Positions 1-52,537 of a stretch of 64,000 nucleotides of DNA are shown in pieces. The first letter of the stretch is position 1. Each line of letters opens with the position of its first letter. Origin of the DNA: a bacterium (lineage in GTDB: Bacteria; Patescibacteriota; Minisyncoccia; Phycocordibacterales; UBA12088); NCBI GenBank assembly GCA_003252295.1, contig QKEV01000002.1, positions 196 through 64,195 on the forward strand, written 5' to 3'. A program made the translations under genes and the position numbers. Under the pieces are notes generated by a model that saw only the letters and a list, made by a program, of their open reading frames with translations, was not told the origin of the DNA and made no database searches.

Positions 1-1347
1 TGCAGTTCTTTTTTTTCGACCTCTTTTCGATCTTTTGAATTATCAACATCAATCACAATTGCAATTTTCTTTTTTAAGCCGATAGCAATTTCAGTGAATC
101 TCTTGTATGTGTTATTCACAGAAATAACCTCTATTTTGTTCATGATGGGCAGTACACCATATTTATCTTTGTATGCCCTTTGAATTACAAGTTCATCAGC
201 ATCACCCTCAACCAATATGGCTTTTTCGCACAGTAAAATCCTCAAAGTATCATATCCAGGAAGTTTTTTGAAAAATTCTTCCGTACTTTTGTCAAGGTCA
301 TTAAAAACCACAGGGTTACCGCTTTCAGATAATAATTTTAAATTATGTAAGCCTAATTTATTGGCAACAAAACTATTATGTGAGGTGATAATTACTTGTT
401 TATGTTTTAGATTCTTTTCCACCTCAGATAATAAATGCAACAAGTTTGTATGCGATAAGTGATTTTCCGGTTCTTCTAGGAGAATTACTTTTGATTCACC
501 TGCTTTATTACTACTTATTGCTACATCAGTTTTCATCAAAGACTGTCGACCTTTCCCAACATGCTCAAAAGGTATTTCTTTGAAATACACTGAGAGGTGA
601 GAGTCCCAAGAATTTTTTGAAGAAGGATCTATCGAAGCGGTTGTGTCTTCATCAAGAATTTTACTCGAAATAAGATCGTGTATTTCATTATCTTTATATG
701 AATCTTTGATACTTCTGAAAAAACGTTTAGCTTTCAATTTTTCACCTGTTTCAAGGTCATTTTTTATTATCCTTGCAATAATGGAATTGGATACATTAAT
801 ATTACTTGACGCAGCATCAATTAACAGTGATTTAATTGGTATTTGAGTTCTTAGAATTTCTTCTCCTGAAAATAGGGTCAAACTTATTTTATAGTACTCT
901 AATGGCAACGAATCGATAAGCTCTCGACTTTTATTTAACATCTCATCATAAGACTCTCTTAAAAACTCGTTAAATGAAATTTGGTAACATATTCCCTTAT
1001 GCTTCTCAGAAGTGTAATTCTCATATCCTTCATATTGCTCAGGGAGTTCTAAATTTTCTGGAAAAAATAGTTCGATACGGATTGCAGGAGGGTCAATATT
1101 TTGCTCATCCTTAATTAGGGCAAGGTATTTTTTGACTTCTTCTTGATTAAAGAGAAAAGGATTAAGCCTTTCTTCTGTTAGAAACTGGTTGTCTAAGTAT
1201 CCAGTAAGTACAAGATTAAATGCCTCGACAACGGTGCTCTTTTTAGATTCGTTGTCTCCAACCAAAATGTTTATCTTCTCATTAAGAGTTAGATTATACT
1301 CTTTATATCCTTTGTAGTTTTCGATATGAATCTTTTCTATATACATA
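1..1347 (-). CDS. OLD-family ATP-dependent endonuclease (ABC-type ATPase + TOPRIM; GajA-like), C-terminus beyond window start
   Basis: My own reverse-strand translation from ATG at 1347: MYIEKIHIENYKGYKEYNLTLNEKINILVGDNESKKSTVVEAF... (Walker A GxNxxxKS), later VILLEEPENHLSHTNL (OLD-type Walker B EEPExHL), then AILVEGDADELVIQRAY and IAIVIDVDNSKD (TOPRIM-like E and DxD). No stop before position 1, so ORF-track absent because truncated. Confidence 0.6.
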
Positions 1348-12901: not shown

Positions 12902-12944
12902 CATAATAGCGCCACTCCTCGGAGTGGCGACTAACATAATTTTG

Positions 12945-13009
12945 GGTAGACGCGCACGACTCAAAACGTGCTTCGCAAGAGAGTGGGAGTTCGATTCTCC
13001 CCTCCGGCA
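12945..13009 (+). pseudogene. partial tandem duplicate of tRNA-Leu(CAA) (D-arm to 3' end; no matching 5' acceptor strand, 8-nt anticodon loop)
   Basis: GGTAGACGCGCACGACTCAAAA-CGTGC...GGGAGTTCGATTCTCCCCTCCGGCAC repeats the 3' two-thirds of the upstream tRNA with a 1-nt deletion; 5' strand CTCGGAG cannot pair with CTCCGGC. Confidence 0.7.
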
Positions 13010-13125
13010 CAATATAATGCTACTCCTTGGAGTGGCGTTATGTCATTCACCTTGCAAGCAATGTATTCGTTGACATTTTTATTTATAATGTTTTAATGTT
13101 GAAAAATACACAGGAGGGGTGCCGA

Positions 13126-21042: not shown

Positions 21043-21060
21043 GTTGTGCGGGTCCACTCC
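21043..21060 (-). repeat. partial duplicate of tRNA-Trp 3' end (att-like)
   Basis: gttgtgcgggtccactcc vs tRNA 3' end gttgcgggtccactccgactcg; diverges after the acceptor region. Confidence 0.7.
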
Positions 21061-21202
21061 TCCTAGGTCCAAGTCACTAAGTATTTTTCATATCTTCAAA
21101 ATACTAAGTGCTTGCGACCCCACCTCGCGGTTCTTCGTTCCTCAGAACATCGCTGCGGTTTTCGAGTCGGGACACTTTGTGCGCAGGCACAAAGTTTGGA
21201 CC
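21061..21202 (-). mobile_element. family-A miniature insert between tRNA-Trp and its partial 3' duplicate
   Basis: Contains imperfect IR cactaagtatttt-N10-aaaatactaagtg then cttgcgacccc; homologous inserts at 39053..39194 and 52364..52537. Confidence 0.55.
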
Positions 21203-21234
21203 ACAACAAAACCGCCGAAAGGCGGTTTATGTTG
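21203..21234. terminator. 32-bp hairpin repeat copy 2 = bidirectional terminator immediately 3' of tRNA-Trp
   Basis: aaaccgcc-gaaa-ggcggttt stem-loop followed by T-run on both strands. Confidence 0.75.
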
Positions 21235-21706: not shown

Positions 21707-21912
21707 CTACGGAAAATAACACTAACTTTTTGTTAGTGTTATTTTTTGTTTTTGCATGCCGAGGAGGGATTCGAACGAGAGGTGAGGAGGGATTGAAATA
21801 CGAAAAGTGTATTTCAAAGGGTGTCCTCCCGTGTAGGAGAGCAGTGAGCGATAGCGAACGCTGAGAACCGTGGGTTCTAAGAGCGCAGCGAGGTACGAGC
21901 GAGCAGTGAGGT
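21707..21912 (+). mobile_element. family-B miniature insert downstream of tRNA-Tyr (includes terminator hairpin aacactaac-ttttt-gttagtgtt at its start)
   Basis: Core gtaggagagcagtgagcgatagcgaacgctgagaaccgtgggttctaagagcgcagcgaggtacgagcgagcagtgag also at 34835..34905 and (reverse) 51031..51110; left end gaggagggattcgaacg is an inverted T-arm-like segment. Confidence 0.55.
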
Positions 21913-21927
21913 TCCCTCCCGGCGCAC
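21910..21927 (+). repeat. partial duplicate of tRNA-Tyr 3' end (att-like)
   Basis: ggttccctcccggcgcac vs tRNA 3' end ggttcgaatccctcccggcgcac. Confidence 0.7.
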
Positions 21928-33014: not shown

Positions 33015-33335
33015 ATGGAACGACAGAGAGACATTACTCTTGCACAACACCTACAGGAACTTGCTGCAGACTTCATAAACCTCAACTCAAATAAGACCTC
33101 TCTTATTACGATTACCAACACAAAGCTTGCAGAAAGAAACAGTAAGGTGACGTTCTATGTTTCAGTATTCCCAGAGGATGCTGAAGGTCCTGCGTTAGGT
33201 TTTCTCATGCGCAAACGCGGTGACTGCAAGCAGTACCTAAAAGAGAAATCTCGTATCAGTACTGTCCCGCATGTTGAATTTGCACTCGATGAAGGCGAGA
33301 AAAATCGACAACGTATAGACACATTGCTACGTTAA
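33015..33335 (+). CDS. rbfA: ribosome-binding factor A
   Basis: ~106 aa, immediately after infB; KH-like RbfA pattern ITITNTKLAERNSKVTFYVSV. Confidence 0.75.
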   Translation: MERQRDITLAQHLQELAADFINLNSNKTSLITITNTKLAERNSKVTFYVSVFPEDAEGPALGFLMRKRGDCKQYLKEKSRISTVPHVEFALDEGEKNRQRIDTLLR

Positions 33336-33363
33336 AACTGAGCTAAAGGAAAACTCAGTGTAA

Positions 33364-34395
33364 TCAGCTTGTTTTGATATCTCTATCCACGAGCCACTTT
33401 CCTAGTGCCACTGATAGCACAGCAAAAGGAATTGCAACCACATAATCAATAAAGTAGTGCTGGGCAAAAAATACCCCTCCAGTCAGCATCAGAACCAGCC
33501 AGGTGGACGACAGCGCCAATGTTCGTCTGTTATACATAAAGAGTATCAGTGCACAAATGTATCCCCATATGGCATGCATACTTGGAAAACAACTTATTGG
33601 CACAACAGGATCACCACTACCACAATAGTTTCTTTCAGATTTTTGAAGATCAGAAATATATTTGCCAGCAAGTGCCTCATCCTTTGGGTACTGAGAAATG
33701 GTTCCTTGTATTTCTGTAGGAATTTCATTCTGGTGGATATTGTCAAAAAAGTAGTTTCCAGGATCTAAGCAAGGAAAATTAATAAAAAAAGGAGTTGGTA
33801 GATAAAACCCAAGTATGAGTGCTATAAATAAAATTCTAAACAAATACTCCCTTGAAACAAAGAAGAAATAGAAGAAAAGAAATATGGCAACATAAAGTAA
33901 ACTTGCATACATCGTCCAAAGTATTTCTGTTGCCCAAAAGTTTCCAATAATCTCTGGTAATGTTAAAAAAGGCTGAAACCCAAGTACCGTTTGATCCATT
34001 TTCCAAAAAAGAATATCGGCTGCATTTTGCTGAAACAAAATACTAGCTTTTGTTATAAAAGCCATTGATGGTAAAAAGGTGATGCACGCTAGAATAAAAA
34101 AGTGAAGAAATACTGACGCAGTTTTACGCATTGTATCCTTGTTATACGTGATCAAGTTTCCTTTCAAAAATTTTTTTGAAAGGAAACTTGTGAGAAGAAT
34201 GAAGGTTAAAGAAAAAACAACTACACACAACAATAAAAAAATATAAAAACCTAAACTTTTAGGGAGACTAAATGAGATATACCTCAATACTGGAAAAACA
34301 GAATCAAAGAATGAAAAATTAAGACCATCCAATGCAAAAATAAAACTGCTATAAGCAAGAAATACACCTATACAGAGTATGTCCTCAATACGCAT
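33364..34395 (-). CDS. PAP2-superfamily integral membrane protein
   Basis: Multi-TM; CFPSMHA (PSGH-like) and AQHYFIDYV (SRx5Hx3D-like) motifs. Confidence 0.5.
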   Translation of the reverse strand: MRIEDILCIGVFLAYSSFIFALDGLNFSFFDSVFPVLRYISFSLPKSLGFYIFLLLCVVVFSLTFILLTSFLSKKFLKGNLITYNKDTMRKTASVFLHFFILACITFLPSMAFITKASILFQQNAADILFWKMDQTVLGFQPFLTLPEIIGNFWATEILWTMYASLLYVAIFLFFYFFFVSREYLFRILFIALILGFYLPTPFFINFPCLDPGNYFFDNIHQNEIPTEIQGTISQYPKDEALAGKYISDLQKSERNYCGSGDPVVPISCFPSMHAIWGYICALILFMYNRRTLALSSTWLVLMLTGGVFFAQHYFIDYVVAIPFAVLSVALGKWLVDRDIKTS

Positions 34396-34543
34396 ACCTA
34401 ACCATTATTACATGATTCTCTCAAACTCAATTAATCTGCTCGATAAAGTGGTGTATAAAATAGACACTTGTTATATATATGTATATTTGATACCTTGTGT
34501 ATCAATAATCCCGCAAATACGATACAATTGTACGGGTACATAC

Positions 34544-34615
34544 GGCCTGGTGGCGAAGTGGTAACGCTTCGGTCTGCAAAACCGACATGCGCGGGTTCGA
34601 TTCCCGCCCAGGCCT
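34544..34615 (+). tRNA. tRNA-Cys(GCA)
   Basis: GGCCTGG/CCAGGCC acceptor, anticodon arm TCGGT-CTGCAAA-ACCGA. Confidence 0.85.
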
Positions 34616-34664
34616 CAAAAGACTTTGAATAATTGGTGTTTTCTAGTATTCTTTGTCATAGTTT

Positions 34665-34746
34665 GCCCGGGTGGCGGAACTGGTATACGCGCACGACTTA
34701 AAATCGTGTCCCTCACGGGATGCGGGTTCGATTCCCGCCCCGGGCA
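34665..34746 (+). tRNA. tRNA-Leu(UAA), type II
   Basis: GCCCGGG/CCCGGGC acceptor, anticodon arm CACGA-CTTAAAA-TCGTG. Confidence 0.85.
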
Positions 34747-34912
34747 CAAGTTTTGAACAAAGTGAAAAACTTTGTTTGGGGTGGAAATCGAACGTTGGAA
34801 GGGGTCGGGAAACCTGTAGGTTTCCCGTATAGGAGAGCAGTGAACGACAGTGAACGCTGAGAACCGTGGGTTCTTAGAGAGCGACGTAAGGAGCGAGTGA
34901 GATAGCAAAGCG
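34747..34912 (+). mobile_element. family-B miniature insert downstream of tRNA-Leu(UAA)
   Basis: gtataggagagcagtgaacgacagtgaacgctgagaaccgtgggttcttagagagcgacgtaaggagcgagtgag; left end ggggtggaaatcgaacg. Confidence 0.55.
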
Positions 34913-34927
34913 TCCCGCCCCGGGCAC
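34913..34927 (+). repeat. partial duplicate of tRNA-Leu(UAA) 3' end (att-like)
   Basis: cccgccccgggcaca identical to tRNA 3' end. Confidence 0.7.
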
Positions 34928-34960
34928 AAACTTACGAACGAGTGCATTAAAATAACAAAA

Positions 34961-34994
34961 ATCCAGTACATTTCACATATGAAATGTACTGGAT
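34961..34994. terminator. terminator of MVP gene: 15-bp perfect hairpin
   Basis: atccagtacatttca-cat-atgaaatgtactggat followed on minus strand by TTTTGTTATTTT. Confidence 0.7.
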
Positions 34995-35028
34995 AATATA
35001 ATGAACCTCCTAGTATATAGTGTTGTAA

Positions 35029-38000
35029 CTACTCAGTTTGAGAAGTTGTTGAATGTTCAGCAATCACTTTTTGATCGCTAGGTATAAGTCGCTTGAGTGC
35101 CCTTCCAAACTTGCTATCAATACCAACAAAATCTGTTAATGCCTTGATACCACCACCGCCAAGCAGGAGACTCAGGCCACCATCATGCTGAGGAAGCTTT
35201 TCTGCAAGCACCTTCATGAGTTCAGATTCGGAAACTGCCTCCAACGCAGCAATAAGCTGCGGCTGCAATGCAGAAAGACGATCTTTGTCTGCTCCAGCCA
35301 ACGCTGTAGCAATGGCAATTTCAATCTTTGATAACGCTTCCTTTTGTTGTGCCACCTGCGCGTCACTTGCTGTAGTAATCTTAAGGGTATTTTCAGCATC
35401 TGCGGCTCGCTGCTTACGTGCTGCTTCAGCAAGTACATCTTGATGTGCTTGTTCTTTTTTAGCACGATCATGGTCAGCTTTCTGTGCATCATCGTTCAAC
35501 TTATGAGATAACTGTAACGCTGTGCTTCTTGTAACATGATCACTCTGTTCCCTCGTAAGAGCAAGTTCAGTTTTTCGAACAACTTCAGCTGTATCAAGCA
35601 TCGCTTTCTCTTCAGCAATACCTGCACGCAACTTATCTGAATCAAGTTGTGCTTGTGCTGCTACATCGCCGATCTTCAAGGTGGCAATCGTCCGGTTGGC
35701 ATCTTCTAGCTGACTTGCAATATGAACATCAGGAATTTTGTACGTAAGTACCTCAACCTCATCGATCATCATATCGTTGTCAGCAAATAGCATGCCAGGT
35801 CTGGGATTATCACCTTCTTTTGGACCTAATACAGTATCACGAATTACTTCGGTCATTGATGGATACAACTCATGCAACGTCATAGTGCGCGCTTTTGCTC
35901 GCAACACACTGCGTATATGTTGCACCATAACCGCAATATAATTTTTGTGCGTAAACCAGTTAATCTTTTGAAGATCGTTATTACCAACAAAGTGTAACCC
36001 GAAGGAAAGATCAACTACAATACTTACAAAATCCTTCGTTTCCAAGTTAACCTGATCAGTAATACGATTTCCCTTCATCCTTAAAAAACAAGTTTCCAGG
36101 TGACCATCATCTGACTTGGGACGACCGGTTGAAAGTTCCAGTCTTTCCAGCACCTCATCATGCTTGAGAAGCACTGTCTCCGGACCAACAACACAGCGTT
36201 GCCCTCTTCGTCCAGTAATAAGAATGGCCTTATTTGATGGTACAGGTATTGATACTGCCCACGGTGTCACAACACCATCTTGTAGTTGTGACACTTTTTT
36301 GTGTGGCTCATTTTCACCAACCCATAAATTCCAGTTAGCACCAGAGATTGACCTTTTATAGTGACGCTGTCTGCGCGGGTCAATCAGTACAGCTTTCGGA
36401 CCAGAGACCAACTGAACTTCACCGCTCTGCATGTCCTCTACATAAACACCTGACTTCCCGTCCACCGGTATTGCAGTAACAAAAACTGTTGTGTGATCAT
36501 TACCAATATGCGGCTTGTTTGTCGTCGGGTCGATAATGTCAAATGATGCCTGCGGTACAATATATGCCTGCACCCCATGCACAAAGAGCTCATCACCCTT
36601 CGAATACAGACTTTTTTCTTCAACACCTTTTACCCCAACAGGCAACAAGGTCTCAAGGTCATCCCTGTTGATGGAAGTAGCTGTAATACGAAGCAACAAA
36701 CCACTTTCCAAAGTCATGTGGTATGCATCGTACACTCGATTGCGAGAACCTTCCTCACGAAAACGATCATACGGACCAGGGAAAACCCTCCCTGGACCGG
36801 CAACCGGCTGTGGTTGACCTTCTTCATTCAGGAGTACACAGAATTCTGCCGGACTCAACACAACCGCCTGACGAACAACATTGATTTTTACATCTCTTGG
36901 CGGTATTTTTTTTATGGCACCGGCACGTTCAGGTTTACTTACACCATACCGGGACATAAAGAGCTCCATCTCATTACGTTTCAACACCTCAAACAGTGCT
37001 TCTCGTAGAGCTCTGGTTGTGTTTCCGTACTTATCATACTTACTTCGGTAGGTACGCATCACTTCGCTATACTTCCGATACAGGTCAGCGTTCTCCAGAG
37101 CATCATCGAGTGTACGAGATGTAATATCTTCATTGTCTATCAACCTGGTAAGTCTATCCTTGAAAAAACCATCTACATACTCCTCCTCATCTGTGGTTGA
37201 ACCATCATCACCAGAAAGTGTATCTGATGCCTCTTGCACAACCTCTGTACCAGTTGGTGGTATAAAGGTCTGGGTTTTGCTACCAGGTATAATCACCAAC
37301 TCACCGGGACGAAAATGATACGGTCCACTACTCCCAATTCCGGCACCACCCTTTTCCAAACTATCAATATCCGTTGAACCTGTACCAGCTTGACCGGGTA
37401 CATTACCTGGTCCGCCATCAGTACCGCCCTCCCCGGTTTTTTCATCAGAAGGAGGTGATTCTTGATCTCCTTCTTCTGTTTCCGTTTCGCCAGGTCCTGT
37501 TTTTTTGCCAGCATTGACATCCTTTGCATCATCAACAACAGCTGCCTTGATCTGGGCACAAGCAACGAGTAACGAGTAGTACGGTGCCTGCACATCAACA
37601 TCCTCTGGTGATACAACCTTGACCAACAAGTACTGGTTTGAACCAAGTACATGGACATCACGTACTTCGATTTCCTGATGTGGCCAAAGTGGAAAATGTC
37701 CACGGGCAACAACAGACATCTTACCAAACTTAAGATCAATAAGTTCCTGTTTCCCAGCACGCCAAGTACCATTAGGAAAGTTGTCACTCACTCCACCAGC
37801 AGCAGGGTTCTTAATTACCGCATACTGCTGTGGTCCAAGTGTAACAAACGGCTGAATAGCTGAAGATAAATCAGTTTCATCAGCAACTTCCAACCGTGTC
37901 CCATCGTCATTATTTGGCAAGAGTGGTTTATCATCACCAGTCAGCTTATCCAAGGGGTCTGGTCCAAAAAATATACCCAGTTTCCCTTGTTTCGTATCCA

Positions 38001-38043
38001 TCGTCCACAGAACTTCATTTGGTCCCAGCGCTCTTTTGCTCAT
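35029..38043 (-). CDS. major vault protein (MVP) homolog, 1004 aa
   Basis: LERLELSTGRPK...DFVSIVVDLSFGLHF matches eukaryotic MVP shoulder motif (FTVLSLSAGRPK...LQLQLAYNWHF); N-terminal MVP-repeat motif HFPLWPHQEIE (cf. PFPLYPGEVLE); C-terminal Ala/Gln/Lys-rich cap-helix coiled coil; Gly/Thr/Asp-rich disordered insertion. Confidence 0.8.
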   Translation of the reverse strand: MSKRALGPNEVLWTMDTKQGKLGIFFGPDPLDKLTGDDKPLLPNNDDGTRLEVADETDLSSAIQPFVTLGPQQYAVIKNPAAGGVSDNFPNGTWRAGKQELIDLKFGKMSVVARGHFPLWPHQEIEVRDVHVLGSNQYLLVKVVSPEDVDVQAPYYSLLVACAQIKAAVVDDAKDVNAGKKTGPGETETEEGDQESPPSDEKTGEGGTDGGPGNVPGQAGTGSTDIDSLEKGGAGIGSSGPYHFRPGELVIIPGSKTQTFIPPTGTEVVQEASDTLSGDDGSTTDEEEYVDGFFKDRLTRLIDNEDITSRTLDDALENADLYRKYSEVMRTYRSKYDKYGNTTRALREALFEVLKRNEMELFMSRYGVSKPERAGAIKKIPPRDVKINVVRQAVVLSPAEFCVLLNEEGQPQPVAGPGRVFPGPYDRFREEGSRNRVYDAYHMTLESGLLLRITATSINRDDLETLLPVGVKGVEEKSLYSKGDELFVHGVQAYIVPQASFDIIDPTTNKPHIGNDHTTVFVTAIPVDGKSGVYVEDMQSGEVQLVSGPKAVLIDPRRQRHYKRSISGANWNLWVGENEPHKKVSQLQDGVVTPWAVSIPVPSNKAILITGRRGQRCVVGPETVLLKHDEVLERLELSTGRPKSDDGHLETCFLRMKGNRITDQVNLETKDFVSIVVDLSFGLHFVGNNDLQKINWFTHKNYIAVMVQHIRSVLRAKARTMTLHELYPSMTEVIRDTVLGPKEGDNPRPGMLFADNDMMIDEVEVLTYKIPDVHIASQLEDANRTIATLKIGDVAAQAQLDSDKLRAGIAEEKAMLDTAEVVRKTELALTREQSDHVTRSTALQLSHKLNDDAQKADHDRAKKEQAHQDVLAEAARKQRAADAENTLKITTASDAQVAQQKEALSKIEIAIATALAGADKDRLSALQPQLIAALEAVSESELMKVLAEKLPQHDGGLSLLLGGGGIKALTDFVGIDSKFGRALKRLIPSDQKVIAEHSTTSQTE

Positions 38044-38299
38044 CAGTTTTTTCCTCCGCTCATTTTTTGCAACTTATTCTTTTTTCAAACATCACCTATA
38101 CCAGTAACAAGTACCTGATTAATATTACCAAGTAACATTAATCAGTACCTGTAACAAAACGAATGTAATTTACATATTTTTTCTATATTTGTCAAGGTTT
38201 GTGGCCATAATACGTAATACAGGTGGCAAGAAAAAATGTATACTTCCAATATCTATGCAAACAATATTACAAAGCAGAGGAACAAGTAATATTGGTTGT

Positions 38300-38698
38300 A
38301 TGGCACTTATTATTAAAAAAGACTCAGTTCTCATGGGTCTCAGAAATTACACGAAAGATGTTTGGAAGGATGCATCTGTTTGGACCTGTCCAGGTGGGCG
38401 ATCCGACAGTGGAGAAACACTTGAGGAAACACTACGACGAGAAGTATATGAGGAAGTTGGTATAGACGATTTAATGATAGAGGATTTTATTGCTAAATCA
38501 CCAGGTGCACAAGAAAGAGATGAAATCTACTTTTTTTATTGCACCACAGACCAAGAACCCCAACTCATGGAGCCGGAAAAGTTTTCAGAGTGGAAATGGG
38601 TACCAGTACAAGAGTACATAGAAAATGATAGCTACGGTGGCTTTAGTCCATACACAAGAAAGGAAAATATTACATACTTAACTTCCTTAAAAAAGTAA
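38300..38698 (+). CDS. NUDIX hydrolase (ORF-track start 38189)
   Basis: Nudix box GGRSDSGETLEETLRREVYEEVGI; divergent from MVP. Confidence 0.85.
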   Translation: MALIIKKDSVLMGLRNYTKDVWKDASVWTCPGGRSDSGETLEETLRREVYEEVGIDDLMIEDFIAKSPGAQERDEIYFFYCTTDQEPQLMEPEKFSEWKWVPVQEYIENDSYGGFSPYTRKENITYLTSLKK

Positions 38699-38734
38699 CC
38701 CGTAGCATATAACCATGCTACGGGCCTAAAGTGT

Positions 38735-38904
38735 TACTTCCCTGTACCAAACCTCCTCTGTTCAAGCTTTGTACTTGCATCACAAAGCATACGATCTGCC
38801 CTGCCAGAATTAAGCCATACCTTAATTATTCCTAAACCTGACTTAGATGATTTATGACGTGTTCCTTTCAATTTAAACATACGTGCAAGACTTTTATCCG
38901 CCAT
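38735..38904 (-). CDS. small basic protein (56 aa; possibly ribosomal-protein-like)
   Basis: My own translation MADKSLARMFKLKGTRHKSSKSGLGIIKVWLNSGRADRMLCDASTKLEQRRFGTGK; RBS caggagaaatact; preceded by bidirectional terminator cccgtagcat-N6-atgctacggg at 38698-38725. Confidence 0.3.
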
Positions 38905-39038
38905 AGTATTTCTCCTGAAAAATTAATATTACTGACCTAAACTCGAGAATACCAAAATATTACTAATACTCAACCTATCACAACACCAAAAGAAATAAAA
39001 ATATTCCTTGCAAAGAAAGAATGTTTTTATTTGTTTTG

Positions 39039-39052
39039 TGCCGGGGAGAGGA
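39039..39052 (-). repeat. partial duplicate of tRNA-Leu(UAG) 3' end plus 12 nt of its flank (att-like)
   Basis: tttatttgttttgtgccggggagagga at 39025-39052 vs cttatttgttttgtgccggggagaggacttgaacc at the tRNA. Confidence 0.7.
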
Positions 39053-39194
39053 ATCTTTCTCATTACATGAGCAGTATGGGTTTCCAGTATTTTGATTCGC
39101 AAAGCTCTCAAAATACTAGGCAACCCTTTCAAGTCCTCTCCTCGGTCAAAACAACAATCGCGGAATGCTCAACACATTCCGCTTATTTGTTTTG
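39053..39194 (-). mobile_element. family-A miniature insert between tRNA-Leu(UAG) and its partial duplicate
   Basis: ccagtattttga-N12-tcaaaatactagg caaccc, same architecture as Trp and Ser-GGA copies. Confidence 0.55.
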
Positions 39195-39276
39195 TGCCGG
39201 GGAGAGGACTTGAACCTCCATGCCTTGCGGCACTTGCTCCTAAGGCAAGCGTGTCTACCAATTTCACCACCCCGGC
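39195..39276 (-). tRNA. tRNA-Leu(UAG), type II
   Basis: Reverse complement GCCGGGGTGGTGAAATTGGTAGACACGCTTGCCTTAGGAGCAAG...GGAGGTTCAAGTCCTCTCCCCGGCA. Confidence 0.85.
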
Positions 39277-39353
39277 GTAAGAAGCATTCTACACTATTAT
39301 TGCATTTTATGCATTTACTTTTTCATCTTTTTGTTTTACACTACGGACCACAG

Positions 39354-39426
39354 CCGCCCATAGCTCAGCTGGTAGAGCAGTCGCCTCTTAAGCGAACGGT
39401 CCTAGGTTCGAGTCCTAGTGGGCGGA
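39354..39426 (+). tRNA. tRNA-Lys(CUU) (one G-A mismatch at top of anticodon stem)
   Basis: CCGCCCA/TGGGCGG acceptor, D-arm GCTCAGCTGGTAGAGC, anticodon loop CTCTTAA, T-arm CTAGGTTCGAGTCCTAG. Confidence 0.75.
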
Positions 39427-39564
39427 CTAAAAACACTTACGTCCCGATGCGATGAGCATTGGGGCGTTAGTGCTTTTCAGACCACTAGGGCTCGAAAGGG
39501 TTACCTGATATTTTGCAACTGAAAGGTGTAAAAATATCGGAAACCCATACTGTTCTGTAAGAAA
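39427..39564 (+). mobile_element. family-C insert between tRNA-Lys and its partial duplicate
   Basis: Unique 138-bp sequence followed by partial tRNA copy. Confidence 0.45.
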
Positions 39565-39579
39565 GAGTCCTAGTGGGTG
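39565..39579 (+). repeat. partial duplicate of tRNA-Lys 3' end (att-like)
   Basis: gagtcctagtgggtg vs tRNA cgagtcctagtgggcgg; followed by terminator aaaagcacc-ttaata-ggtgctttt. Confidence 0.65.
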
Positions 39580-39622
39580 AACAAGGAGATAAAAGCACCT
39601 ATTAAGGTGCTTTTATTATTTT

Positions 39623-39922
39623 TTAAAGATTGATTGGTGTGATCTCTTTTGGAATATCAGAGCTACTAACACCAATTGTACGCAAACCTATTTCGAGTAT
39701 TGCATATACTGATACCATAATAGTCATTCCTATGAGACCGTACATGATATGCCGCTTTCCATCGGCACGTTTAGATTCATCACCAGCATTTAAAATAAAT
39801 ACCATGAGACCATACATCATGTAAAGCAATGCACCTGCAAAGATGATTGCAATAATAGGATTTATGATCTCAGTAGTTACCTTTTCTACAAAAACCTTAA
39901 CCTCATCTGGAACTGGTTGCAT
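39623..39922 (-). CDS. TrbC/VirB2-like two-TM pilin-family mini-protein, paralog 1 (ORF-track start 40117 rejected)
   Basis: IIAIIFAGALLYMMYGLMVFILNAGDESKRADGKRHIMYGLIGMTIMVSVYAILEI shares F-x-AGD-x5-GK-x4-WG-x-IGL consensus with five upstream paralogs. Confidence 0.55.
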   Translation of the reverse strand: MQPVPDEVKVFVEKVTTEIINPIIAIIFAGALLYMMYGLMVFILNAGDESKRADGKRHIMYGLIGMTIMVSVYAILEIGLRTIGVSSSDIPKEITPINL

Positions 39923-39963
39923 GTTCTCATTACTATATAGCCATACTTTTTTTACAGCAATAG

Positions 39964-40012
39964 ACACTATACACAAAATGCGACAGATAATGTCGCATTT
40001 TGTGTATAGTGT
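39964..40012. promoter_or_regulatory. 22-bp perfect inverted repeat with 5-nt spacer between pilin paralogs 2 and 1
   Basis: acactatacacaaaatgcgaca-gataa-tgtcgcattttgtgtatagtgt. Confidence 0.7.
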
Positions 40013-40032
40013 TGTAAAAACAATTACTACGC

Positions 40033-40386
40033 CTACGGTGTTGGACCAGTTGGGAAAGTTGTTTGCGTTGATGCTGTAACACCAAATATGTTCTGCATAA
40101 CTGCAATAATTCCCCAAATAGAAACAATACAGAACAATGCAACTACACCCCAGATCATTCTCCTCTTTCCTTCATCTTTCGCACCCTCGTCTCCAGAAGC
40201 TAAGATGAACTGCGCAAGTCCCCAAATGAACACAAGCAGTGCAAGTGAGACAGCTATTGGGATCAATGCATTAACAATCTTACCAAGAGATGTAACGATA
40301 TTGGTGAACCATGCAAAATTTTGCGCAAGAGCAATCCCTGGAAGAAGAACACTTAGTGAAGGTAACACCTTTAAAGCTTTTTTCAT
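40033..40386 (-). CDS. TrbC/VirB2-like pilin-family mini-protein, paralog 2 (signal peptide)
   Basis: MKKALKVLPSLSVLLPGIALA signal; LVFIWGLAQFILASGDEGAKDEGKRRMIWGVVALF. Confidence 0.55.
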   Translation of the reverse strand: MKKALKVLPSLSVLLPGIALAQNFAWFTNIVTSLGKIVNALIPIAVSLALLVFIWGLAQFILASGDEGAKDEGKRRMIWGVVALFCIVSIWGIIAVMQNIFGVTASTQTTFPTGPTP

Positions 40387-40482
40387 ATAAACTATTTATA
40401 AATATTCTAATAATATGTTCAATATCACTACTGAAAGCATAGCACATTCGCCGCAATTTTAGCACTACACGTGTGGATAATG

Positions 40483-40848
40483 CTACCAAGTAATGATTGG
40501 TGTAGGGTGATCATTACTTGATGGTTGAGATACCCCGATTATATTCATGAGCAATCCAACAATACCCCACACGCTTATCAAAACGACTAAACCAATAAGT
40601 CCCCAAAAAATCCTCTTCTTTCCCTCCTCACGTGCTTTTGCTTGTTCAGTGTCAGTAAGCCCCATACCATAAAGCATACGAACCACTCCCCAGAGAAAGA
40701 CTAGTAGGCTTGCACTTATGAGAATACGTACCAGCATACCCATAATACTGGCACTGAAAAGACTGTCGATAATACTCCCAACAGTTTGAGCATGTGTACT
40801 GAAGGGTACCAAAAGAAAAAGGAATAATACTGTAAACCTGTATATCAT
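40483..40848 (-). CDS. TrbC/VirB2-like pilin-family mini-protein, paralog 3 (signal peptide)
   Basis: LLVFLWGVVRMLYGMGLTDTEQAKAREEGKKRIFWGLIGLVV. Confidence 0.55.
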   Translation of the reverse strand: MIYRFTVLFLFLLVPFSTHAQTVGSIIDSLFSASIMGMLVRILISASLLVFLWGVVRMLYGMGLTDTEQAKAREEGKKRIFWGLIGLVVLISVWGIVGLLMNIIGVSQPSSNDHPTPIITW

Positions 40849-41150
40849 GTAAAAAATGTATTCTTTAAGATTTCAATCAAACCCCAAATTGCAACCATCA
40901 CAAAGAGTGATATGGTTCCCCATATCATTAGTTGTTTACCCTGCTCCCTACTTTGATCATCACCTGCTGTTGTAATAAAGCGCACAAGACCAAAAAGAAA
41001 GAATATAAAGGCGAAAGCCGTAACGATATATACAAACTTATTTATCAACTCAACAACCCCTGCAGCAAAATTCTTGAAGGACTGCCCATATACAACTACT
41101 GGCAGCAACACAAGAAAAAAAAATAATGTACATTGTTTGACCTTAATCAT
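40845..41150 (-). CDS. TrbC/VirB2-like pilin-family mini-protein, paralog 4 (signal peptide)
   Basis: IFFLFGLVRFITTAGDDQSREQGKQLMIWGTISLFV; 4-bp overlap with paralog 3. Confidence 0.55.
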   Translation of the reverse strand: MIKVKQCTLFFFLVLLPVVVYGQSFKNFAAGVVELINKFVYIVTAFAFIFFLFGLVRFITTAGDDQSREQGKQLMIWGTISLFVMVAIWGLIEILKNTFFT

Positions 41151-41157
41151 ACTTGTA

Positions 41158-41439
41158 TTACGGTTTTAATGATGTAACTGTCGCACTTATCATGATTGAA
41201 AATGCTTGTGCACCAAGAATTATCAGAGCACCTATTACAGCCCATACGAGCGCTGAACGTGCTTTTTGAATTTTCTGTGGATTTCCCTGTGCAGTCACAA
41301 ACAAAAAACCTGTATAGATGATCACTAAAACCACAATGGGAAATAAAACATACACAACAACCGTAAGGATGGTCGCTAAAAGCTCCTGTAATGTTGTACC
41401 GGCAAATGGATTTAAAAATTGACTCGCTGTATTAGGCAT
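41158..41439 (-). CDS. pilin-family mini-protein, paralog 5 (subfamily with AQGNPQK loop)
   Basis: VLVIIYTGFLFVTAQGNPQKIQKARSALVWAVIGALIIL. Confidence 0.5.
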   Translation of the reverse strand: MPNTASQFLNPFAGTTLQELLATILTVVVYVLFPIVVLVIIYTGFLFVTAQGNPQKIQKARSALVWAVIGALIILGAQAFSIMISATVTSLKP

Positions 41440-41472
41440 ACGTATATATTAGCACACACCCCACTATAAATA

Positions 41473-41748
41473 TTATATTAAATTCTTAGCTGTCGAATCT
41501 ATCATTTGAGCAATTGCAAATGCAGCAAGCACTATCACTGCACCTATAGTGGTCCACAATAATGAACGTTTTGCATCATCAAGCTTCTGTGGGTTTCCTT
41601 GTGCGGCAACAAACAGGTAACCTGTATAAATCATCATGAGTACCAAAAATGGAAAAAGTATGTACGTAAGCGTAGAAAGTATCGTATAAAGAAACACTTT
41701 CAAATCAGCATACTTTATAGGATTTGTGAAAGCGTATGCAATTTTCAT
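41473..41748 (-). CDS. pilin-family mini-protein, paralog 6 (AQGNPQK subfamily)
   Basis: VLMMIYTGYLFVAAQGNPQKLDDAKRSLLWTTIGAVIVL. Confidence 0.5.
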   Translation of the reverse strand: MKIAYAFTNPIKYADLKVFLYTILSTLTYILFPFLVLMMIYTGYLFVAAQGNPQKLDDAKRSLLWTTIGAVIVLAAFAIAQMIDSTAKNLI

Positions 41749-51030: not shown

Positions 51031-51110
51031 CTGTGGAGGAGGAGAAAATCTCACTGCTCACTCACTCCGTTCGTTGCGCTCACAAAACCCACGGTTTTAC
51101 AATATTCCTC
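51031..51110 (-). mobile_element. family-B element core (reverse orientation) ~210-290 bp downstream of tRNA-Ser(CGA), ending in partial tRNA-Ser-like ttctcctcctcc
   Basis: Minus strand reads cctgtggagga...aaaaccgtgggttttgtgagcgcaacgaacggagtgagtgagcagtgag-attttctcctcctcc, colinear with Tyr/Leu-TAA copies. Confidence 0.5.
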
Positions 51111-52235: not shown

Positions 52236-52344
52236 ATACAACACAGGGTAACATTTTTTATCATTTCTTGTACAAAGAATTTTTGTCTTCTTGCAACATT
52301 TTGCTGACTGTGTCAGTCGAAGCCGAGCCTCTGCGAGGAAAAGG

Positions 52345-52363
52345 CGGAGAGAGGGGGATTCGG
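52345..52363 (-). repeat. partial duplicate of tRNA-Ser(GGA) 3' end plus shared downstream flank (att-like)
   Basis: cggagagagggggattcgg vs tRNA 3' end cggagagagggggattcgaaccc; flank gactgtgtc.g.cg.agccgagc.tctgcgagg also matches the Ser(CGA) 3' flank at 51270-51320. Confidence 0.7.
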
Positions 52364-52537
52364 TCACAAGTTACTAAGTATTATTCGGAGCAATACTCCT
52401 CAAATACTAAGTACTTGCTACCCCGCCTCAGTGCTTTTTCGTGCTTTGGCACGCGCACTTCCGGCTTTCGAATCCACCGTTCCAAATGGAACCACAAAAG
52501 GTGTACTACTACTGTAGCACACCTTTTGTGTCTCCTG
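52364..52537 (-). mobile_element. family-A miniature insert between tRNA-Ser(GGA) and its partial duplicate
   Basis: ttactaagtatt-N19-aaatactaagtacttgctacccc; hairpin aaaaggtgt-N14-acacctttt next to tRNA. Confidence 0.55.

Follow-up and report, generated by a model that had tools for sequence, protein, structure and literature searches.

A gene of the major vault protein family in a probably acquired, tRNA-bordered islet of a Patescibacterium chromosome

The gene and its predicted product

[quoted passage not shown] The same MVP gene is found on a 4.5-kb contig of run SRR7216773. The gene shares a 4.4-kb segment with a NUDIX hydrolase gene and a 56-aa ORF, and the segment is bracketed by two convergent tRNA-Leu genes (Table 1). 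Its surroundings are tRNAs, pilins, PAP2, RbfA and IF2; the window also encodes three T4SS_pilin genes, IF2, RbfA, ClpB and the RNase P RNA.

Table 1. Features of the MVP gene, its product and the flanking segment (window coordinates)
Feature	Position	Strand	Details
Left border: tRNA-Cys, tRNA-Leu(taa), family-A tRNA-trailing element	34544..34929	+	
tRNA-Leu(taa)	34665-34747	+	
Intrinsic terminator of MVP gene	34961..34994	-	perfect 15-bp stem, then T-run; TTTTTGTTATT
MVP-family gene	35029..38043	-	1004 aa, ATG start, intact
Short helices and Gly-rich C-terminus, cap-ring-like	35032..35268	-	aa 926-1004; pLDDT low to medium
Single cap-helix, 153 residues	35269..35727	-	aa 773-925; DSSP helix on predicted model
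Shoulder (SPFH-like) domain	35734..36069	-	aa 659-770
Four vault repeats, rat R6-R9 equivalents, including LELSTGRPK	36070..36873	-	aa 391-658; pLDDT >90
Five-helix insert separating repeats 3 and 4	36952..37197	-	aa 283-364; helices pLDDT >90
Acidic Gly/Glu/Thr-rich disordered loop within repeat 3	37324..37518	-	aa 176-240; pLDDT <50
N-terminal beta repeats 1 and 2 and start of repeat 3	37519..38043	-	aa 1-175; contains FPLWPHQ motif
MVP 5' region	38053..38195	-	promoter-like site, inverted repeat, GGAGG; consensus matches
Divergent NUDIX hydrolase gene, islet member	38189..38698	+	PF00293, 2.6e-18
Basic 56-aa ORF, islet member	38734..38904	-	called as gene in Logan contig
Right border: family-B element, tRNA-Leu(tag) (-), tRNA-Lys (+), second family-B element	39027..39582	.	
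tRNA-Leu(tag)	39194-39276	-	

Membership of the MVP family is close to certain. The models used as the membership test were the Pfam vault families (PF11978, PF17795, PF17796), and the protein scores above the curated cut-offs with MVP_shoulder (PF11978; E 3.5e-18, 66.2 bits where 25 is required; match at aa 659-770, covering positions 3-116 of the 118-position profile), Vault_3 (E 1e-8, 35.6 bits against 28.8; aa 600-654) and Vault_4 (E 8.7e-5, 23.1 bits against 22.9; aa 524-549). The initial annotation, which had called the 1004-aa ORF an MVP homologue, proposed such a search and named a generic band-7/SPFH match as the contrary outcome; Band_7 stays below threshold, at 14.9 bits against 23.6. 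Searched with phmmer, six MVP sequences from the PDB match at E of about 1e-16 over aa 392-934, and a profile built from 55 homologues matches rat MVP at 4.4e-44, from R6 through the end of the cap-helix; identity to the rat protein is about 24% within the conserved core. Across those 55 homologues, which are only 32-45% identical, 45 columns are invariant and about 100 nearly so; near-invariant residues at the N-terminus, family-wide, are G20, G27, P28, Y74 and P80. The AF2 model (mean pLDDT 80; 533 residues at 90 or above) was compared with known structures, another check proposed at the outset: vault structures fill the first twelve places among the Foldseek matches (E 1e-25 to 1e-31), with SPFH proteins reaching only about 1e-7. 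That the product is instead a generic SPFH/band-7 or TolA-like coiled-coil protein, its likeness to MVP superficial, is exceedingly improbable: the Pfam vault matches, the Foldseek vault matches and the profile match to rat MVP refute it. The protein is predicted to be soluble; no transmembrane segment is found, the maximum 19-residue Kyte-Doolittle value (1.49) being below threshold and belonging to a beta strand of a repeat.

The motifs first singled out are present, one of them in a different domain from the one proposed. HFPLWPHQEIE, given as an N-terminal MVP-repeat motif, lies at about aa 116-126 and pairs with rat FPLYPGE in the phmmer alignment. Both halves of the supposed shoulder signature occur as well: DLSFGLHF (aa ~678-685) stands opposite rat LAYNWHF, and LELSTGRPK (aa ~635-643) opposite rat LSLSAGRPK, but the latter falls within the Vault_3 match and ends the last vault repeat, outside the shoulder domain. 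N-terminal of the shoulder there are tandem MVP-type beta repeats, about seven of them by the AF2 strand pattern (three plus four), against nine (R1-R9) in animal MVP. The last four align with rat MVP 273-519 (phmmer and profile alignments), and the helical insert occupies the place of R4-R5. Nine repeats define the animal form, not the family as a whole. An alignment of ~860-aa proteins (A3), tried as a canonical-MVP outgroup, turned out to be a prokaryote-like subfamily with the same N-terminal motifs, on which R1-R9 could not be mapped.

The disordered insertion described as Gly/Thr/Asp-rich is recovered as a Gly/Thr/Asp/Glu-rich loop (18 G, 8 E and 7 T; net charge -9). Most Myxococcota/Planctomycetota-type members (alignment A1) have a loop of 6-17 aa, and members of the Patescibacteria clade one of 11-74 aa, mostly 34-65. 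The region of the five-helix insert also varies within the family; it comprises 4-31 aa in a set of short forms (P0002, P0013, P0025, P0030, P0032, P0037, P0039 and P0113). Loop and insert are two lineage-variable decorations.

The long C-terminal segment likened to a cap-helix is an Ala-rich predicted helix, and it pairs with the rat cap-helix as far as residue ~801-810. Most Patescibacteria-clade members have a segment of 160 aa here (range 138-247), the Myxococcota type has one of 164 aa and rat one of ~156 aa; heptad or 3.6-residue periodicity of hydropathy and conservation in the cap-helix is weak (power 2-5). Beyond it, the family-conserved motif GLLxGxGG suggests that the C-terminal 79 aa are the equivalent of the rat cap-ring.

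The gene had been described as standing alone, with a perfect-stem terminator, and both descriptions hold. It has its own promoter-like site (TTGACA-17-TAAATT at 38195-38167 (-)), a 14-bp inverted repeat in the 5' region (38115-38145), a ribosome-binding site (GGAGG at 38057-38053, 9 nt upstream of the ATG) and the terminator. All-against-all ORF clustering of 83 distinct MVP loci revealed no conserved partner gene and no true neighbour that other loci share with those of Patescibacteria. Large clusters there are shadow ORFs within the MVP gene; two associations are confined to single lineages, namely a Ser/Thr kinase gene located upstream (16 Myxococcota/Planctomycetota loci) and a MutS-like gene (Polyangium). 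As to a vault RNA, Rfam finds just tRNAs and RNase P at gathering threshold in the whole 64-kb window, and nothing credible at E up to 1 over 34500-39700.

The inter-tRNA segment and its relatives

The location between two tRNA-Leu genes is as originally stated, and tRNA-Cys and tRNA-Lys also adjoin. The att-like duplicates reported at both tRNAs exist: an exact 17-nt copy of the tRNA-Leu(taa) 3' end (34913-34929) terminates the family-A element, and an exact 26-nt copy of the tRNA-Leu(tag) 3' end lies at 39027-39052, the family-B elements spanning 39027-39193 and 39428-39582. Each duplicate, however, encloses a tRNA-side element of ~100-150 nt and leaves the MVP gene outside. Such tRNA-trailing elements follow seven of the ten tRNAs in the window and occur also in relatives whose fetched loci are without MVP; in a metagenome scan with a 17-mer from one of them, real copies numbered 4 of 120, the rest being mostly chance. 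No flanking direct repeats bounding the islet were found, nor any integrase domain among its genes (MVP, NUDIX and the 56-aa ORF). Adjacency to tRNA genes was considered as a family trait and rejected: a tRNA lies within 1 kb in 4 of ~10 Patescibacteria loci, each time a different one, and at ten tRNAs per 64 kb this is not clearly above chance.

The 56-aa ORF has no match in Pfam, PHROG or PADLOC. The NUDIX protein matches phage phrog_1198 (3.5e-18) and the PADLOC defence candidate PDC-S07 (1.2e-11), both generic to the fold. Linkage of NUDIX with MVP was set aside as coincidence: the two lie within 5 kb in the window, L001 and L004, but the NUDIX proteins are barely alike (29% identity at most, E 3e-4), and L002 lacks such a gene.

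Comparison with relatives, also suggested by the initial annotation, is what speaks for acquisition. Three of them (L092, L093 and L094), with GyrA 83-86% identical, retain gyrA, a methyltransferase gene, SBP, pilins and the four tRNAs (Lys, Leu-tag, Leu-taa and Cys), while tblastn on their partial contigs finds no MVP, NUDIX or orf56 at the syntenic site. The inter-tRNA gap is ~0.5-0.9 kb in L094 and L092; in L093 the space is taken up by 3.2 kb of different cargo, with a ParB-CE gene in it. The PAP2 gene beyond the tRNAs is likewise missing from the relatives. The closest MVP is 47% identical, whereas GyrA has relatives at 84-87% identity and is 84% identical to Parcubacteria/Patescibacteria MAG proteins. 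These loci are seen as partial contigs, so that a copy elsewhere in the relatives is excluded indirectly, by the finding of no homologue above 47% identity in a search of 5.8 billion proteins. The gene is very probably part of a variable acquired islet; the original claim of horizontal acquisition is supported, by absence from three syntenic sites and not by the att-like duplicates.

Composition gives no sign of foreign origin: the gene has a GC content of 0.451 (window mean 0.426 +/- 0.033) and a GC3 of 0.353 (0.372 +/- 0.056), and its codon usage (distance 0.23, among the lowest for long genes) is native, like that of neighbouring housekeeping genes. It follows that the transfer is old, or that the donor was compositionally similar, or that the gene was lost from the relatives. 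We favour a segment that would have been gained horizontally at a recombination-prone tRNA cluster, from a donor of similar composition: most likely another Patescibacterium, or a large phage carrying a member of the clade.

Loss from the relatives leads to a different history, in which an ancient Patescibacteria gene was inherited vertically and discarded by most lineages, these three included. The neighbour-joining phylogeny lends this history some weight: the Patescibacteria-type sequences, window protein included, form a deep and separate clade (96 of 100 bootstraps), spanning MAGs of Moraniibacteriota, Parcubacteria, Buchananbacteria and Staskawiczbacteria. Native base composition and codon usage, and an islet bounded by neither integrase nor att repeats, fit it too. 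We nevertheless judge vertical descent decidedly unlikely. Of the three relatives, two have nothing in the inter-tRNA slot and one has unrelated cargo there; NUDIX, orf56 and PAP2 are missing along with MVP; every MVP-bearing Patescibacteria locus is at a different genomic position; Patescibacteria make up only ~8 of the 80 best GTDB species matches (131 species in total, 185,579 genomes); and the clade contains a contig classed as viral.

That contig, 424 kb long and listed as viral by IMG/VR, encodes the clade member P0032. Relatives that lie outside the tree sampling are encoded on two more contigs that IMG/VR classes as viral, of 195 kb and 54 kb, and more distant matches occur in GenBank huge-phage records of 462 and 735 kb; the IMG/VR labels are automatic classifications, and the BFVD viral structure library yielded SPFH-type proteins only, with no clear phage MVP. 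Core identity to proteins of Nannocystis, Polyangium, Labilithrix and Planctomycetota is 35-39%. The islet might be the remnant of a large phage, or a moron, whose MVP homologue serves phage biology or excludes other phages, by a protein shell sequestering nucleic acid or proteins, and has no part in host physiology. The viral contigs and the GenBank huge-phage records invite this view, as do the published phage MVPs (10.1101/2023.11.10.566534), the MVPs borne by Borg elements (10.1101/2024.11.05.622173) and the phage and defence matches of the adjoining NUDIX. It is on the whole unlikely, as phage hallmark genes are absent in and beside the islet, whose neighbours are the tRNAs, pilins, PAP2, RbfA and IF2 already listed; the MVP-family protein matches no PHROG or PADLOC model; the NUDIX matches are fold-generic and the viral labels automatic.

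Candidate assembly, role and significance

The protein more likely than not forms a closed oligomeric cage. Subunits would assemble side by side, as in MVP and every solved SPFH relative, repeat packing on repeat and shoulder on shoulder, with the cap helices making a parallel barrel; a lone helix of 153 residues, as modelled, needs partners, and indirect support comes from the length of the cap-helix segment, which in most Patescibacteria-clade members and in the Myxococcota type is near that of rat. The product would be a ring-symmetric closed cup, or possibly two cups joined N-terminally into a short cytoplasmic vault-like cage, with the acidic loops and helical inserts decorating one face. 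Multimer models of Asgard and Borg homologues show cup- or barrel-like arrangements (PMC12962969; 10.1101/2024.11.05.622173). With seven repeats, a 65-aa acidic loop and a helical insert of about 80 aa, lateral packing could be changed, or blocked, by the inserts.

A narrower outcome deserves attention, although we think it improbable: the protein may be an MVP-family member that makes no two-cup vault and stops at one closed cup or dome, or at a small ring, perhaps docked on a membrane or other structure, like the ~10-mer Asgard cup model or the membrane-capping SPFH cages. A count of about seven repeats, together with the additional helical insert, would suit such a form; ten copies of the five-repeat Asgard homologue close into a cup in the published model (PMC12962969), and all solved SPFH relatives matched by shoulder and helix are single cages on membranes; eukaryotic vaults have lately been seen on membranes in situ (PMC13100048). 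Yet the protein has neither a transmembrane segment nor a lipid-anchor-like N-terminus, its cap-helix is as long as that of rat and not short like SPFH helices, and the N-terminal repeats, which make the waist contact in rat MVP, carry the family-conserved residues named above.

Taken jointly, an MVP-family protein, a gained islet and assembly into a cage are likely to be the best overall explanation. As for its role, the presence of relatives on huge phages and Borgs makes sequestration during conflict between virus and host the most plausible guess. A bolder version, possible but doubtful, would have ultra-small Patescibacteria and the huge phages that share the clade build true vault-like cages from a seven-repeat MVP, a stand-alone 'compartment gene' moving between phage and host through recombination-prone tRNA clusters, for sequestration in that conflict.

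What vaults do, and how they arose, has been asked since the 1980s without an answer, and prokaryotic homologues are an obvious way to a simpler vault system. Ultra-small Patescibacteria cells are only ~200-300 nm wide; were the cage reading true, a cage tens of nm across would take a noticeable share of the cell and offer a minimal, tractable system in which to ask what purpose vaults serve. Assembly would mean a self-sufficient cage-forming gene, usable for nanocontainer engineering, and a means to ask which cargo a minimal cell or phage must enclose; failure to assemble would show that the MVP fold has other uses.

The initial annotation overstated the novelty of vault-like proteins in bacteria: homologues are already described in bacteria (PMC3762200; 10.1101/872010), phage (10.1101/2023.11.10.566534), Asgard (PMC12962969) and Borg elements (10.1101/2024.11.05.622173). 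In the literature searched we found no paper connecting MVP with Patescibacteria, no published experimental characterisation of any prokaryotic MVP homologue and no experimentally seen prokaryotic MVP assembly. With the family already catalogued (Pfam, JGI names and several papers), the gain is incremental pending experiment. The locus contributes a single-gene case, clean and intact, from a Patescibacterium with a reduced genome; evidence from synteny that this gene is accessory, either gained or variable; and a tie between the Patescibacteria MVP clade and a contig classed as huge phage.

Comparison with known systems

The SPFH cages (HflK/C, flotillin, prohibitin, erlin, stomatin and QmcA) are membrane-anchored, have shorter helices and are without vault repeats; the window protein, by contrast, falls under the Band_7 cut-off and has no hydrophobic anchor. 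Its closest structural matches are eukaryotic MVP and vaults (rat 4V60/4HL8, human 9BW5, murine R1-R7 3GF5), with the same order of modules: beta repeats, SPFH-like shoulder, cap helix of ~155 residues and Gly-rich C-terminus. Sequence homology begins at R6 and extends to where the cap-helix ends, with FPLWP, LSxGRPK and the shoulder core as motifs in common. The window protein differs in having ~7 repeats and not nine, the R4-R5 equivalents missing, and in its five-helix insert and 65-aa acidic loop, known here from sequence and predicted model.

Bacterial MVPs of Myxococcota, Planctomycetota, Bacteroidota and cyanobacteria (Daly et al. 2013, PMC3762200; Sokolskyi 2019, 10.1101/872010) belong to the same family, with the same architecture, and are encoded by stand-alone genes as well. 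In contrast to these, the window protein sits in a separate Patescibacteria/phage clade and has a much longer acidic loop; its host is ultra-small with a reduced genome, not a gliding or social bacterium with a large one.

Phage, Borg and Asgard MVPs (10.1101/2023.11.10.566534; 10.1101/2024.11.05.622173; PMC12962969) are predicted to retain repeats, shoulder and cap helix. Gut-phage MVPs in the literature measure ~810 aa and are tied to Bacillota-type hosts (10.1101/2023.11.10.566534), and P0032, the viral copy within the clade, is short and lacks the helical insert, unlike the window protein. The Asgard form has five repeats (PMC12962969), against about seven here; and in contrast to phage and Borg copies, the window copy is chromosomal, amid housekeeping genes.

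Vault-family membership and predicted anatomy

[quoted passage not shown] Its Pfam matches stand above the curated cut-offs for MVP_shoulder (66 bits; cut-off 25), Vault_3 (35.6; 28.8) and Vault_4 (23.1; 22.9), while Band_7 remains below its own threshold; no NCBIfam model matches the protein. Searched against the PDB as a single sequence, the protein matches MVP from rat, human and rabbit (E ~1e-16, residues 392-934). With a profile of 55 homologues the match to rat MVP strengthens to 4.4e-44 and runs continuously along rat residues 273-801, covering everything from R6 through the cap helix. The AlphaFold2 model made from the alignment of these 55 homologues has a mean pLDDT of 80 (533 residues at 90 or above), and its first twelve Foldseek matches in the PDB are vault structures (E 1e-25 to 1e-31); R1-R7 vault crystal structures come next (E ~1e-10), and SPFH cages (flotillin, erlin, prohibitin, HflK/C, stomatin) follow behind the vaults at only ~1e-7. 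Together these matches argue against the alternative, a generic band-7 fold with no relation to vault domains, and bear out the initial annotation of an MVP homologue.

Domain limits were drawn from the model and the family alignment (see table). The prediction gives about seven repeats, whereas eukaryotic MVP has nine. The motifs noticed initially are present. FPLWPHQ, the counterpart of FPLYPGE in rat R2, lies in the second beta repeat. One assignment to a domain needs correcting: LELSTGRPK, initially ascribed to the shoulder, closes the last vault repeat (the Vault_3 match, aa 600-654). Within the family, it is the acidic loop and the helical insert that vary. Most members of the Myxococcota/Planctomycetota type have a loop of 6-17 residues, and those of the Patescibacteria clade mostly one of 34-65; eight of the 55 sequences in the alignment have an insert of no more than 4-31 residues. 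The cap-helix segment (160 aa in most members of the Patescibacteria clade, 164 aa in the Myxococcota type) is close to the ~156 aa of rat. No 19-residue window has transmembrane-like hydropathy (maximum 1.49), and a soluble protein is therefore predicted.

Features of the MVP protein, its gene and the surrounding tRNA cluster (aa, protein residues; other coordinates are window positions unless a contig is named)
Feature	Coordinates	Strand	Remark
Two beta repeats	aa ~5-58, ~59-118		
Third beta repeat	aa ~119-272		interrupted by disordered loop
Acidic disordered loop	aa 176-240		65 residues, 18 Gly, net charge -9
Five-helix insert	aa 283-364		confidently modelled
Four repeats	aa 391-658		align to rat R6-R9
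Shoulder	aa 659-770		
Single helix	aa 773-925		153 residues
C-terminus	aa 926-1004		lower model confidence; GLLxGxGG conserved in family
MVP-family ORF	35029-38043	-	1004 codons, unbroken
Promoter-like TTGACA-17-TAAATT	38195-38167	-	5' of MVP gene
14-bp inverted repeat	38115-38145		CTGATTAATATTAC / GTAACATTAATCAG; putative MVP 5' UTR, between promoter-like site and ribosome-binding site
GGAGG		-	9 nt ahead of MVP ATG
Terminator-like hairpin	34994-34961	-	perfect 15 bp, T-run; 3' of MVP gene
NUDIX gene	38189-38698	+	divergent from MVP
PAP2 gene	33364-34395		missing from L092, L093, L094
T4SS_pilin gene run	39623-41700	-	PF18895
tRNA-trailing element	12903-13010		
tRNA-trailing element	21045-21233	-	
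tRNA-trailing element	21708-21927		
tRNA-trailing element	34748-34929		
tRNA-trailing element	39027-39193	-	
tRNA-trailing element	39428-39582		
tRNA-trailing element	51041-51096 (in addition to the seven)		
tRNA-trailing element	52341-52536	-	
Synteny to window 33300-39600	L092 16400-20700		
Synteny to window 33300-39600	L093 17400-21600		
Synteny to window 33300-39600	L094 16300-18600		

A variable slot in a tRNA cluster

Each sequence feature of the initial annotation (ORF, motifs, promoter region, terminator, tRNAs, duplicates) was found again. On one side of the MVP gene lie tRNA-Cys and tRNA-Leu(taa); on the other, the divergent NUDIX gene, a 56-aa ORF, tRNA-Leu(tag) and tRNA-Lys. The inverted repeat ahead of the gene could serve as an operator or fold into an RNA hairpin. 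The same gene was also assembled independently from short reads, as Logan contig SRR7216773_158749 (4496 bp); both ends of this contig fall near tRNA-trailing repeats, consistent with assemblies broken by them.

The window is chromosome of a Parcubacteria-type Patescibacterium. Its GyrA is 84-87% identical to the nearest database homologues, those with names (84%) being Parcubacteria/Patescibacteria MAGs such as GW2011_GWA2_43_11, and it also encodes T4SS-type pilins, IF2, RbfA, ClpB and RNase P RNA. The run of small pilin genes, which adjoins a solute-binding-protein gene and is kept in relatives, is typical of Patescibacteria.

Three contigs from close relatives (L092, L093, L094; GyrA 83-86% identical) have gyrA, methyltransferase, solute-binding protein and pilin cluster in the order of the window, followed by its four tRNA genes; L092 runs on into rbfA and infB. 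The flanks are thus kept, and tblastn finds no MVP, NUDIX, 56-aa ORF or PAP2 gene in the three contigs. The gap that separates tRNA-Leu(tag)/Lys from tRNA-Leu(taa) measures about 0.5 kb in L094 and 0.9 kb in L092; in L093, which matches the window in tRNA order and orientation, 3.2 kb of other cargo, including a ParB-CE gene, takes the place of MVP. The tRNA orientations vary among relatives, and in L094 a LAGLIDADG homing-endonuclease gene abuts tRNA-Leu(taa). The tRNA-Lys/Leu-tag/Leu-taa/Cys cluster is a hot spot of rearrangement and cargo in this lineage; the empty or differently filled slot and the shifting orientations place MVP in a variable position within it. Inheritance with repeated loss is the other way to account for such a distribution, but there are many GyrA relatives at 84-87% against a best MVP match of 47%, so that acquisition is more likely. 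In GC, GC3 and codon usage, the MVP gene is like the neighbouring housekeeping genes, which counts against recent transfer from a distant donor; there is no integrase at the islet.

The att-like duplicates described initially do exist; they are not the borders of an island. Of the ten tRNA genes in the window, seven have their 3' end copied (0-2 mismatches in 16) 93-205 nt further downstream, and the copy closes an element of ~100-150 nt that starts after a terminator-like hairpin. Six elements fall into three sequence families, each at two tRNAs: A (Tyr and Leu-taa), B (Leu-tag and Lys) and C (Trp and Ser-gga); the element after tRNA-Leu(caa) differs, being a 5'-truncated copy of that tRNA. 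In family B the 5' arm is an inverted copy of the tRNA T-loop/acceptor 3' strand and pairs with the 3' direct copy; both arms vary with the tRNA around a constant core of ~70 nt. To judge by this pattern, the RNA would resemble a tRNA acceptor/T minihelix capped by foreign hairpins. Elements also occur in relatives whose fetched loci are without MVP, the same tRNA sometimes having another family, and L094 has tandem copies. Their nucleotide identity in relatives is 76-89%, against 66-74% for adjacent coding DNA. Rfam has no match to them; mobile miniature elements, recombination scars and small RNAs are the three candidates.

Relatives, phage-borne copies and neighbours

A word-indexed search returned 617 related proteins, the nearest 47% identical (39-41% at full length), with names from Moraniibacteriota, Parcubacteria, Patescibacteria, Myxococcota (Polyangium, Nannocystis, Minicystis) and Planctomycetes; many already carry the JGI annotation 'major vault protein'. 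An exhaustive search of 1.84 billion cluster representatives gave 837 clusters at E <=1e-3 and 415 at <=1e-30. In GTDB, 131 of 185,579 species genomes encode a relative: Myxococcota are in the majority, Planctomycetota are several, and about eight of the best 80 species matches are Patescibacteria. A second subfamily comprises hundreds of metagenomic proteins of ~820-900 aa (E ~1e-50 to 1e-66 to the query), some with the JGI label, which have the N-terminal motifs FPLWPGQ and YIPPTG in common with the query and are without the helical insert.

In a neighbour-joining tree of a 533-column core, rooted on rat MVP, the window protein forms a single clade with all Patescibacteria-type sequences (96 of 100 bootstraps), with long internal branches and core identities to the window protein of 41-49%. 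One clade member (P0017; loci L002/L003/L006 on contigs Ga0309772_1000015 and CAYPKD010000004.1) comes from a MAG titled 'uncultured Gammaproteobacteria bacterium'; the placement of P0017 may reflect a wrong label, a wrong bin or transfer.

Another member, P0032, labelled Nanoarchaeia at NCBI, lies on Ga0265297_10000052, a 424,144-bp contig that is in a 'Candidatus Nanoarchaeia' MAG in NCBI and is listed as a viral genome in IMG/VR; it is packed with small unidirectional ORFs and also has an HNH endonuclease gene and an Hcp-fusion gene. Two further IMG/VR viral contigs, of 195 kb (194,595 bp) and 54 kb, carry relatives that were left out of the tree. GenBank holds more distant copies (26-29% identity) in records titled 'uncultured phage', 735 kb and 462 kb in length; phage-like records of the family are LR756500, LR756501 and LR756503.

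None of the genes around MVP is conserved across 83 distinct loci, which makes it most likely that the protein works by itself, like MVP when self-assembling. The adjoining NUDIX gene has generic matches only, to phage NUDIX families (phrog_1198, 3.5e-18) and to the PADLOC defence candidate PDC-S07 (1.2e-11); since its Pfam domain starts only at aa 40, the TTG start has probably been placed too far upstream. Two other Patescibacteria loci also have NUDIX genes within 5 kb of MVP, but these are not orthologous. A divergent Ser/Thr protein kinase gene stands upstream of MVP in 16 Myxococcota/Planctomycetota loci (L015, L021, L027 and 13 more), and a MutS-domain-V gene directly upstream in Polyangium (L046 and nine more); these adjacencies may be chance, as Myxococcota have many kinase paralogues.

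Expected assembly and comparison with known vaults

Closed ring-symmetric cages are built by MVP and by all SPFH relatives with a solved structure; in them the shoulders lie side by side and the helices that follow make a parallel barrel; an isolated 153-residue helix is not viable as a monomer. By analogy, the shoulders would pack laterally and the cap helices would form a parallel barrel, although periodicity analysis of the helix gives a weak signal. With this precedent, a helix length near that of rat, and the cup- or barrel-like multimers modelled by others for Asgard and Borg homologues (PMC12962969; 10.1101/2024.11.05.622173), the somewhat favoured expectation is a homo-oligomer, shaped as a cup or short barrel, that would carry its acidic loops and helical inserts on a single surface. 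Sequestration in virus-host conflict is no more than a reasonable guess at its role, because MVP is found on huge phages and Borgs and the adjoining NUDIX has generic phage and defence-candidate matches.

The initial reading is supported overall, with the corrections on att sites and motifs noted here and one on novelty, which was overstated. MVP homologues from bacteria have been on record since 2013, when ten sequences were described (PMC3762200), and were taken up again in 2019 (10.1101/872010). Further homologues were published from phages (2023; 10.1101/2023.11.10.566534), Borgs (2024; 10.1101/2024.11.05.622173) and Asgard archaea (2026; PMC12962969). The literature searches turned up neither a paper naming both MVP and Patescibacteria nor an experimental structure or image of any prokaryotic vault. 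The family is catalogued yet experimentally untouched, and a single-gene example from a small genome, with a link to phages, is a good candidate for expression and imaging. The kind of protein is already known; what is new here is the phylum-level setting and the clear accessory-gene context.
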